A stretch of 59,175 bases of DNA. Source: a virus (lineage: Duplodnaviria > Caudoviricetes). This document shows, one piece after another, positions 57,727 through 58,782 of this stretch (its first letter is position 1; each line of letters begins with the position of its first letter). The stretch covers positions 1-59,175 of the IMG/VR virus record IMGVR_UViG_3300028392_000072. One strand, 5' to 3'. The notes beneath the pieces are model-generated. The model was not told the DNA's origin, searched no databases, and saw only the letters and a list, made by a program, of their open reading frames with translations. The position numbers and the translations under genes were made by a program.

Positions 57727-57798
57727 TAGCGATACCAGGAATCGAACCTGGTCCTCAAGGATATGAGCCGAGTGAGCTTGCCGTTACACCATATCGCC
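57727..57798 (-). tRNA. tRNA-Met (CAT), elongator-type, mismatched anticodon stem
   Basis: loop CTCATAT; canonical T-arm. Confidence 0.75.
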
Positions 57799-57804
57799 AT
57801 TTAG

Positions 57805-57891
57805 TACTTCTGATCGGACTTGAACCGATACGGACCTTCCGGTCCAAGGGATTTTAAGTCCCTCGCGTGCTGCCAATTTCGCCACAGAAGC
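57805..57891 (-). tRNA. tRNA-Leu (TAA)
   Basis: AGGGA-CTTAAAA-TCCCT; long V-arm. Confidence 0.9.
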
Positions 57892-57898
57892 TTTTTAG

Positions 57899-57970
57899 AG
57901 CTCTCTACCGGTAACGATCCGATTTATTTAGTTTACAAGACTAACGCATCACCATTAATGCTTAGAGAGC
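57899..57970 (-). tRNA. tRNA-Thr (TGT), atypical T-loop ATCGTTA
   Basis: TTAGT-CTTGTAA-ACTAA. Confidence 0.85.
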
Positions 57971-57976
57971 TTATTG

Positions 57977-58059
57977 AGCACCTGGAGGGATTCGAACCCC
58001 CGTGACTGAGTTTGCAATCCAGTGCCTTTCGTATTTCTACTCCACTCGACCACAGGTGC
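57977..58059 (-). tRNA. tRNA-Cys (GCA) with GTA-GAAA-TAC hairpin in the D-loop
   Basis: loop TTGCAAA; U73. Confidence 0.8.
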
Positions 58060-58066
58060 TTATTAG

Positions 58067-58139
58067 TAGTCCTGACCGGGATTGAACCGATGACCTTCTC
58101 GATGTAAGCGAGTTGCTGCTACCGCTGAGCTACAGGACT
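58067..58139 (-). tRNA. tRNA-Val (TAC)
   Basis: loop CTTACAT; A73. Confidence 0.9.
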
Positions 58140-58146
58140 ATTTTTG

Positions 58147-58230
58147 TACCGGAGGTGGGACTCGAACCCACACGTCATATAGACACTAGCTTCTAAGGCT
58201 AGCGCGTATTAACCATTTCGCCACTCCGGC
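58147..58230 (-). tRNA. tRNA-Leu (TAG)
   Basis: CTAGC-CTTAGAA-GCTAG; long V-arm. Confidence 0.9.
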
Positions 58231-58234
58231 ATTT

Positions 58235-58337
58235 TGTGAATGTGGTAGGGTATTCTCCTACAGATGTGGTGGTTATCTACTTTCCATTATCCACTCTAGT
58301 CATTCGGCTAGTGCTGTTGTAGTTTATCAGCATTCAC
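58235..58337 (-). ncRNA. tRNA-like structured RNA of unclear identity
   Basis: terminal GTGAATG/CATTCAC; T-like arm GTAGG-AGAATAC-CCTAC; occupies a slot in the tRNA array. Confidence 0.5.
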
Positions 58338-58348
58338 ACATTCTTTTG

Positions 58349-58427
58349 TACCCCAGGTAGGATTCGAACCTACATTTTCAGTTCCGTTACGATTAGTCGC
58401 TTAGAAGGCGACCTCGGCTACTGAGGC
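58349..58427 (-). tRNA. D-armless tRNA-Arg (TCT)-like
   Basis: GCCTCAG/CTGGGGT; 8-nt linker TAGCCGAG; GTCGC-CTTCTAA-GCGAC; 22-nt variable region; canonical T-arm. Confidence 0.75.
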
Positions 58428-58433
58428 ATTTTG

Positions 58434-58512
58434 TCGGTACGATAGGACTTGAACCTACATTTGCAACACCATTACGAATATCCACATTATCAGTGTGGCT
58501 CGGTACGCACCG
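58434..58512 (-). tRNA. D-armless tRNA-Ile (GAT)-like
   Basis: CGGTGCG/CGTACCG; linker TACCGAG; CCACA-CTGATAA-TGTGG; 23-nt variable region; T-arm. Confidence 0.75.
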
Positions 58513-58527
58513 TTTTATTTCTTTTTG

Positions 58528-58598
58528 AGGACCGGGTGGGTTACGATCCCACTTACTACACGTTAACAGCGTGTTGCTTGCCACTAAGCTTCCAGTCC
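58528..58598 (-). tRNA. tRNA-Asn (GTT), atypical T-loop ATCGTAA and U73
   Basis: ACACG-CTGTTAA-CGTGT. Confidence 0.8.
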
Positions 58599-58611
58599 AA
58601 ATTTCAAACAT

Positions 58612-58643
58612 AAAAAAACCCTCAGTTTTTGACTGAGGGTTTT
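58612..58643 (-). terminator. attenuator terminator 3 (upstream of the 10-gene tRNA array)
   Basis: minus strand AAAACCCTCAG-TCAAAAA-CTGAGGGTTTTTTT. Confidence 0.85.
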
Positions 58644-58671
58644 GGATATCTTTTATAAAAATTTGTTTACA

Positions 58672-58782
58672 TTAATTGACAAATCCTTTAAATAGATCAA
58701 AACCCTCACAAGGTCTAATACATAACGTATTATTCACCACTGTCAGTGTATTCATGTTCATATTTAAATTAATTGTTGTCAT
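58672..58782 (-). CDS. leader peptide MTTINLNMNMNTLTVVNNTLCIRPCEGFDLFKGFVN
   Basis: first 23 codons use only the amino acids of the downstream tRNAs; TGAGGGTTTT (58699-58708) is a perfect 10-nt complement of the terminator 5' arm. Confidence 0.85.
   Translation of the reverse strand: MTTINLNMNMNTLTVVNNTLCIRPCEGFDLFKGFVN

Follow-up and report, generated by a model that had tools for sequence, protein, structure and literature searches.

Candidate transcription attenuators with codon-matched leader peptides ahead of tRNA gene arrays in a probable huge-phage fragment

The DNA analysed here (the window) is the whole of a virus record in IMG/VR, IMGVR_UViG_3300028392_000072 (Duplodnaviria; Caudoviricetes), with a length of 59,175 bases and 27.6% G+C. 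On its minus strand a short open reading frame (ORF), leader 1, stands before an intrinsic terminator and an array of nine tRNA genes, and the opening codons of the leader are those that the array can decode. We propose, with a probability of roughly 0.8, that the window contains three ribosome-mediated transcription attenuators of the classical type, leader 1 being part of one of them, and that they would control tRNA genes. The comparison with related phages further supports the view that the leader 1 unit belongs to a conserved set of such codon-matched attenuators of tRNA arrays, spread over the genome and predicted from sequence in a clade of huge phages. The elements of the leader 1 unit, in the order in which they would be transcribed, are as follows.

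58842..58873 (-): TTAG-N20-TATTTTTG, resembling a Bacteroidetes promoter (-33/-7 type)
58783..58841 (-): 5' untranslated region; contains a hairpin (AAAAGG..CCTTTT) and, about 8 nucleotides (nt) 5' of the ATG, the AATATATA motif
58672..58782 (-): leader ORF 1, 36 codons and a stop, peptide MTTINLNMNMNTLTVVNNTLCIRPCEGFDLFKGFVN; codons 1-23 (58782-58714) all cognate to the tRNAs behind it
58698..58708 (-): antiterminator 5' strand (segment 2), TGAGGGTTTTG, within leader codons 25-29; pairs with 58644-58634
58612..58643 (-): intrinsic terminator, stem 58643-58633/58625-58615 of 11-12 pairs, AAAACCCTCAG/TCAAAAA/CTGAGGGTTTT plus TTT, T-run to 58612

The match between leader 1 and its array is confirmed. 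A preliminary description, made from the DNA letters without database searches, had claimed that codons 1-23 specify only M, T, I, N, L, V, C and R and that each is read by a tRNA of the array. The codon list agrees: 23 of the 23 opening codons are decodable by the nine downstream tRNA genes under standard wobble. Under the same rule the array anticodons read 17 codons, which make up 29.5% of the 17,145 codons in the 64 window ORFs of at least 100 amino acids. The chance of 22 cognate codons after the ATG, a calculation that the preliminary description had suggested, is 0.295^22 = 2e-12, and a six-frame scan of the whole window finds this run as the sole cognate run of at least 12 codons. The tract includes codons that are rare in the phage genes (CTG 0.15%, GTG 0.27%, ACG 0.12%). 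Not all of the 23 codons are specific to this array, however. Residues 2-8 fit a prefix, M-[KTR]-[TN]-[IL]-N-x-[IN], that is common to the leaders of unrelated arrays, so that the first eight codons are generic and the array-specific part corresponds to codons 9-23 or thereabouts. Most leaders carry this prefix together with the AATATATA motif 5' of the ATG, which suggests that the units arose by duplication from a common ancestor.

Leader 1 has 12 further homologues (13 sequences with the window), in which the start codon and the frame are kept and substitutions in the tract stay within M/N/L/I/T/V/C/R. Shortly after the tract, TGAGGGTTTT (58708-58699, codons 25-28) repeats the 3' arm of terminator 1 and so can pair with its 5' arm, AAAACCCTCA (58643-58634); this complementarity, too, had been recognized in the preliminary description. 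The terminator starts 28 nt past the leader stop. The antiterminator duplex is predicted at -16.2 kcal/mol (z = -4.1 against shuffles). In a MAFFT alignment of the 13 distinct homologues, 82.2% of the cells of the antiterminator helix are paired, against at most 54.4% when the partners are slid, and none of 500 shuffles reaches this value; 7 of its 13 pairs have changed on both sides in a compensatory manner. The figure is conservative, since the upstream strand of one homologue (G002) lies four columns off register in the alignment and was counted as unpaired. The competing helix, that of the terminator, has 96.2% of its cells paired and compensatory changes in 4 of 12 pairs. The sequences thus retain two mutually exclusive helices that both covary. 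Indeed, the strand just past the conserved TLC(N)IR codons changes in step with the terminator stem among the homologues, for instance in these combinations.

Terminator 5' arm CCCTCAG with upstream strand CTGAGGG
Terminator 5' arm CCCAGATTC with upstream strand GAATCTGGG
Terminator 5' arm CCCGAACC with upstream strand GGTTCGGG
Terminator 5' arm CCCGAATA with upstream strand GGTGTCGGG

Two more candidate units lie on the same strand of the window, one for Gln, Pro and Asp codons and one for Gln codons.

49430..49525 (-): leader ORF 2, MKTINVNIAQVNPQPQDQDSKEVTNYVFTIS, with Gln/Pro/Asp codons; antiterminator strand ACTAACTATG at 49456-49447
49407-49376, element to 49371 (-): terminator of unit 2, followed by the three tRNA genes
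49370-49298, 49235-49162 and 49152-49077 (-): tRNA-Gln(TTG), tRNA-Pro(TGG) and tRNA-Asp(GTC)
48112..48162 (-): leader ORF 3, MRTTTQFQQQQINRTD, with codons QFQQQQ, before tRNA-Gln and glnS
48118-48112 (-): strand AGATTGA of unit 3, overlapping the leader 3 stop; pairs with TCAATCT at 48074-48068
48083-48053 (-): terminator of unit 3
47991-47911 and 47883-47812 (-): two tRNA-Gln(TTG) genes
47783-46146 (-): glnS

The identity of glnS is given by TIGR00440 (630 bits against a cut-off of 425.8), and no minus-strand terminator is found between the tRNA-Gln genes of unit 3 and glnS. Homologues of leader 2 occur in seven related genomes (G001, G002, W01, W02, G004, G005 and G006), and Gln-run leaders precede every examined tRNA-Gln array that has an intact upstream region.

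For the wider comparison, relatives were fetched through the GlnRS protein and their tRNA genes then located. Units were collected by a fixed procedure blind to tRNA identity: tRNA genes came from ARAGORN and terminators from a simple finder, and the leader was taken to be the longest ORF that begins with ATG and stops 10-45 nt short of the terminator. The first set, five genomes and the window, yielded 43 terminator-to-tRNA units; seven overlap duplicates were removed, as were the unit of L038, which lacks a leader ORF, and unit 18, whose terminator is a false call within a tRNA, leaving 34. A leader ORF is accordingly present in 34 of the 35 genuine units (36 less the false one), and also in 21 of 21 units of the second set. 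Eight related genomes or fragments (159-642 kilobases, kb) hold 5-7 units each. The preliminary description had seen in leader 1 a translated, multi-amino-acid leader joined to a terminator/antiterminator switch; this reading is supported by the two other window units, by 54 further units of the relatives and by the 12 homologues with their compensatory changes.

When leaders and arrays are permuted within a genome and cognate codons are counted, the true pairing is the unique maximum in every genome of the first set (G001 1/5040, G002 1/720, G003 1/120, W01 1/5040, W02 1/720, window 1/6), and the outcome is unchanged when the first 8 codons are skipped. The true pairing is likewise best in three more distant genomes (G004 1/5040, G005 1/5040, G006 1/720), so that in all 8 relatives tested no other permutation scores as high. 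These permutations took the place of an amino-acid-level test, in which z-scores for whole peptides ranked the own array first in 23 of 35 cases, one of them the false unit 18, because the shared prefix and the 3' part of the peptides dilute such a measure. A Leu-rich leader also precedes five tRNA-Leu genes in a 735-kb phage (LR756501.1). Examples of leader tracts and the arrays behind them are listed here.

Array His/Lys/Phe/Trp: tract HKHFSKSNKWFS
Array Arg(ACG)/Ser: tract SKSSSSRSS
Array Glu/Tyr: tract AYYYEGE
Array Gly/Ala: tract AIIGGGAGA
Array of five tRNA-Lys: tract IKKKKKP
Array tRNA-Gln: tract QQQQQ

The matching extends to synonymous codons. In three Ser/Arg leaders before Arg-ACG/GCG arrays the Arg codons are CGN seven times and AGR never, and AGA is found in leaders before Arg-TCT; for Ile, the leader codon is ATA where the array has Ile-TAT, and ATT where it has Ile-GAT. 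Cognate codons ending in G or C number 83 of 298 in the 34 leaders, about twice the 37.3 expected from window gene usage. RNA structure or a greater sensitivity to tRNA supply are possible reasons for this excess, neither of them firm.

The geometry of the 34 units is also regular. The spacing between stop and terminator is 17-34 nt in all 34 (median 24). Cognate codons are concentrated between codon 9 and the antiterminator strand (205/405, 51%); their density is 26% in codons 2-8 (63/238) and 15% from the strand to the stop (41/280). The best duplex between a leader and its own terminator 5' arm has a mean z of -2.55 against shuffled leaders, with 21 of 34 units below -2. When such duplexes are permuted within the five larger genomes, the own pairing ranks 2/5040, 2/720, 3/120, 3/5040 and 1/720.

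In 19 of 34 units the promoter motif stands no more than 130 nt 5' of the leader start; the window background is 0.022 per 130 nt. The element at 58842..58873 was classed by the Bacteroidetes -33/-7 consensus, and a near-identical copy lies at 49611, 5' of leader 2. In 21 of 34 units the sequence ATATA is no further than 22 nt from the start codon. Units without the promoter motif, such as the Gln leaders, sit immediately behind another array and look like nested attenuators.

In the scheme that we favour, a host-type promoter would start the transcript and the short leader ORF would be translated at once. A fast ribosome would run over and mask the strand 58708-58698 while the polymerase makes the terminator, which would then form and keep the tRNA genes from being transcribed. 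When cognate charged tRNAs are scarce, the ribosome would stall in the tract and the strand would be free to pair with the terminator arm, allowing read-through into the array. The tRNAs so made would relieve the stall, and each unit would act as a supply controller for one codon set; the Gln unit would provide glnS in addition. The feedback would be negative, since the regulated product is the same tRNAs whose shortage caused the stall. The scheme supposes translation of the leader, coupling of transcription to translation and a response in the stated direction. The variable sensed would be the decoding rate, that is, the supply of charged tRNA, and the fact that the outputs are tRNA genes points to tRNA supply rather than to amino acids as such. 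Carried further, it would mean that these huge phages possess a complete, codon-resolved controller of tRNA supply, with six to eight units per genome covering all 20 amino acids, working on demand and switching itself off, and that this is the first case of ribosome-mediated attenuation governing tRNA genes. We hold this extended claim to be somewhat probable.

Several observations weigh against the attenuator proposal or limit it. No Shine-Dalgarno sequence is found before leader 1, and it is from the conservation of the ORF that we infer its translation. The antiterminator strand of leader 1 ends 26 nt before the stop, a feature found in 12 of 34 units, so that a ribosome waiting at the stop would leave it exposed and masking must rest on timing. 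An A/U-rich hairpin with the stop codon at its tip is predicted 3' of the strand and 5' of the terminator, and may be relevant to that timing. The OR-gate logic put forward in the preliminary description is a possibility; given the usual estimate of the ribosome footprint, a stall at codons 21-23 (Cys, Ile, Arg), which are close to the strand, may itself block it. Folding predicts a protector or pause helix (1:2) for 33 of 34 units, though not one clearly more stable than in shuffles (mean z = -1.17). For the three window units by themselves, which have AAACCC arms in common, permuting the duplexes gives no significant result (4 of 6). Some leader residues have no called tRNA in their array, for example Ser and Asn in the His/Lys/Phe/Trp leaders, or Gln in Asp/Pro leaders where tRNA-Gln belongs to the next unit. 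Nesting of the Gln unit behind the preceding array would explain the Gln codons of the Asp/Pro leaders. ARAGORN misses non-canonical tRNAs and the array sets are consequently incomplete. Homologous units in different genomes, moreover, are not independent events.

RNA libraries add weak evidence in favour of the proposal. It consists of Logan contigs, which cannot show RNA ends or strand and may include carried-over DNA. Two metatranscriptome runs, both from a single lake study, gave contigs over 58804-58656, and one contig (58746-58501) bridges terminator 1 into tRNA-Asn and tRNA-Ile. The fragments of runs X18 and X20 mostly continue into unlike sequence, probably tRNAs of other organisms, and uncovered stretches are uninformative. 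The contigs are compatible with expression of the leader 1 region and prove nothing more.

The same architecture could instead serve to sense amino-acid starvation of the host, as the wording of the preliminary description implied with its single sensor for eight amino acids, the phage answering with more tRNA and GlnRS. An attenuator of this kind reads charged tRNA and cannot separate low tRNA from low charging; classical attenuators do respond to starvation, and the glnS gene of the Gln unit would be useful only if charging were limiting. Extra tRNA, however, does not relieve a lack of amino acids, so that two of the three window units would respond without remedying the shortage they sense, and matching down to synonymous codons and anticodons (CGN/AGA, ATA/ATT) points to tRNA species. 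We therefore regard starvation sensing as unlikely. Improbable, in our estimate, is a different mode of action for the same leaders, in which they are translated and codon-matched and act through stall-dependent protection or processing of the precursor, or through Rho-type polarity, with the hairpins as constitutive insulators. The imperfect strand-masking geometry in 12 of 34 units, the weak 1:2 helix and the contig that crosses the terminator would fit that mode. A plain insulator, though, would not need an upstream strand that keeps its position in the ORF and covaries with the 5' arm of the terminator, nor does it account for a stop-to-terminator spacing held at 17-34 nt.

Two other explanations were rejected. 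An ORF of 65 hydrophobic residues on the plus strand (58676-58873), antisense to leader 1, could be taken for the real gene, given that the frame is open over 40-89 codons across the leader region in 13 of 13 homologues. Its start and end are not conserved, it runs through the leader promoter and into the terminator, and it leaves the match between sense codons and tRNAs, present in every genome, without explanation; the open frame can be attributed to the restricted codon set on the sense strand. We consider this gene very improbable. Chance, that is, an AT-rich small ORF that happens to stand before a terminator and tRNA genes, gains some credit from the abundance of N, I, L and T at this G+C content. 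It is nevertheless scarcely credible in view of the run statistics per start given above and of exact permutation tests replicated in 9 genomes or fragments. In addition, three unrelated tRNA-rich phages, a small sample of one locus each, gave 0, 1 and 1 terminator-to-tRNA units, and the two units found lie 409 and 256 nt from the tRNA, in no such arrangement.

The proposed mechanism as such is known, the closest cases being the multivalent ilv and thr leaders and, for the unit with glnS, pheST. Enterobacterial leader-peptide attenuators include those of ilvGMEDA (Leu/Val/Ile) and thr (Thr/Ile) as well as trpL, hisL, leuL and pheL. They share with the window units a short leader rich in regulatory codons, an antiterminator strand, an intrinsic terminator and the possibility of more than one amino acid per leader. 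Unlike these operons, which encode biosynthetic enzymes, the phage units would regulate tRNA genes, with up to eight or more amino acids per leader. They also differ in being phage-encoded, in a codon choice that follows the downstream anticodons, in their Bacteroidetes-type promoters and in lacking a Shine-Dalgarno sequence. An aminoacyl-tRNA synthetase is under attenuation control in pheST of E. coli (pheM leader), and the Gln unit of the window resembles it as a predicted leader-peptide attenuator of a part of the translation apparatus; in contrast to pheST, glnS stands behind two tRNA-Gln genes in one unit, and the other units contain tRNA genes only. T-box riboswitches of Firmicutes bind uncharged tRNA directly through a specifier codon and need no ribosome. 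They resemble the phage units in sensing the state of tRNA and in using a terminator/antiterminator switch before translation-related genes. The phage units, however, have no T-box match (none in Rfam at E <= 1 in 57000-59175, none at gathering score in the whole window) and contain an ORF of many codons that is presumably translated. No Rfam leader family attains its threshold; Phe_leader (RF01859) scores 26.4 bits against a cut-off of 55, with an alignment on the terminator only.

In the open full-text literature, with subscription journals and supplements outside reach, no description was found of attenuation before tRNA genes, in phage or cell, nor any account of phages regulating their own tRNA genes. 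Within that searchable literature, the placement before tRNA genes would be the new part. The main text of Al-Shayeb et al. 2020 (PMC7162821), on phages larger than 200 kb, has no occurrence of 'attenuat' or 'leader'; it reports many tRNAs and aminoacyl-tRNA synthetases in such phages, and its tRNA clusters resemble the window in this richness.

If the proposal is correct, a feedback loop that responds directly to the speed of decoding can govern tRNA genes. The tRNAs of huge phages, dozens per genome, would be made conditionally for each codon family rather than constitutively. A phage could then answer, species by species, a mismatch in codon usage, its own degradation of host tRNA or a tRNA-cleaving host defence. 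The last point would link conditional phage tRNAs to tRNA-targeting host immunity, which is widespread according to the abstract of PMC12409363. The leaders could also help to predict what is decoded by odd tRNA genes that standard finders miss, here those for Cys, Ile and Arg. As compact, modular and codon-specific sensors, the units might be reused as reporters of translational capacity.

The array behind leader 1 begins 17 bases past the terminator stem and 14 past the T-run. ARAGORN calls six of the genes (Asn-GTT, Leu-TAG, Val-TAC, Thr-TGT, Leu-TAA and Met-CAT, all on the minus strand). Eight of the nine pass the Rfam tRNA model (RF00005, cut-off 29 bits) with 35.8-58.9 bits; the Cys-GCA gene falls below.

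58528..58598 (-): tRNA-Asn (GTT), ARAGORN; Rfam 50.7 bits
58434..58512 (-): non-canonical tRNA-Ile (GAT), no ARAGORN call; Rfam 35.8 bits
58349..58427 (-): non-canonical tRNA-Arg (TCT), no ARAGORN call; Rfam 36.7 bits
58147..58230 (-): tRNA-Leu (TAG), ARAGORN; Rfam 58.9 bits
58067..58139 (-): tRNA-Val (TAC), ARAGORN; Rfam 55.5 bits
57976..58059 (-): tRNA-Cys-like gene (GCA) with enlarged D region; Rfam 19.6 bits (58051-57985), cut-off 29
57899..57970 (-): tRNA-Thr (TGT), ARAGORN; Rfam 43.4 bits
57805..57891 (-): tRNA-Leu (TAA), ARAGORN; Rfam 53 bits
57727..57798 (-): tRNA with anticodon CAT (Met; Ile2 identity possible), ARAGORN; Rfam 45.6 bits

In the Ile-GAT and Arg-TCT genes, 4-5 nt replace the D arm and the variable region is about 20 nt; a homologue of the Ile-GAT gene is seen in LR745206.1. 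The Cys-GCA gene is kept in two relatives (L029 and L021), where its acceptor, anticodon and T stems show compensatory changes but the GCA loop is constant, and in the homologous arrays of three others (L040, L046 and L047) ARAGORN calls a canonical Cys-GCA. A 118-nt spacer within the array (58348-58231, minus strand) contains a long inverted repeat, TGTGAATG ... CATTCACA, and has no tRNA or Rfam call. The Arg and Leu genes are adjacent at this place in LR745206.1, and the spacer may be an insertion or a decayed gene. The gene gltX (55562-57019, minus strand; TIGR00464, 390 bits) lies 660 nt past the array and is separated from it by an ORF on the plus strand (216 amino acids, without family match); no leader was seen before gltX.

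The window is probably a fragment of a huge phage with a Bacteroidetes host. CheckV estimates the completeness of the record at 15%. The nearest GenBank records are LR745206.1, LR756502.1 and LR756501.1, and the closest relatives there are uncultured phages of 635 and 642 kb; Bacteroidetes hosts are predicted for the largest genomes in the main text of PMC7162821. The habitat is freshwater: among the metagenome runs listed, seven (freshwater, lake or unlabelled) hold at least half of the sampled words of the stretch.

Some further observations concern the other tRNA loci of the window. The tRNA-Gln(TTG) gene at 47991-47911 is 81-82 nt long with an extra arm, and similar long Gln genes occur in relatives. 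Between tRNA-Asp and the Gln leader lies a Cys-rich ORF of 275 amino acids (48197-49024, minus strand) without Pfam or NCBIfam match. At a similar position, L007 has an ORF with an HNH-like motif at its end, and in G001 and W01 the Gln leader stands directly behind the preceding tRNA without an inserted ORF; the window ORF is probably a homing endonuclease. A fourth tRNA cluster (37266-35810), with tRNA-Met, a GOLLD RNA and two odd tRNA-like genes, has promoters but no leader or attenuator. The GOLLD RNA (36063-36468, minus strand; Rfam RF02032, 265 bits against a cut-off of 150) sits between tRNA-Met (37266-37194) and the two odd genes, with structured sequence extending to about 36950, and is preceded by two tandem promoter-like motifs (37089 and 37001). 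One of the odd genes (35976-36052, minus strand) is called by ARAGORN as a tRNA with a four-base anticodon (attc) and scores 41.6 bits with Rfam; the second tRNA-like sequence, at about 35905-35810 on the same strand, lies before a terminator at about 35790.

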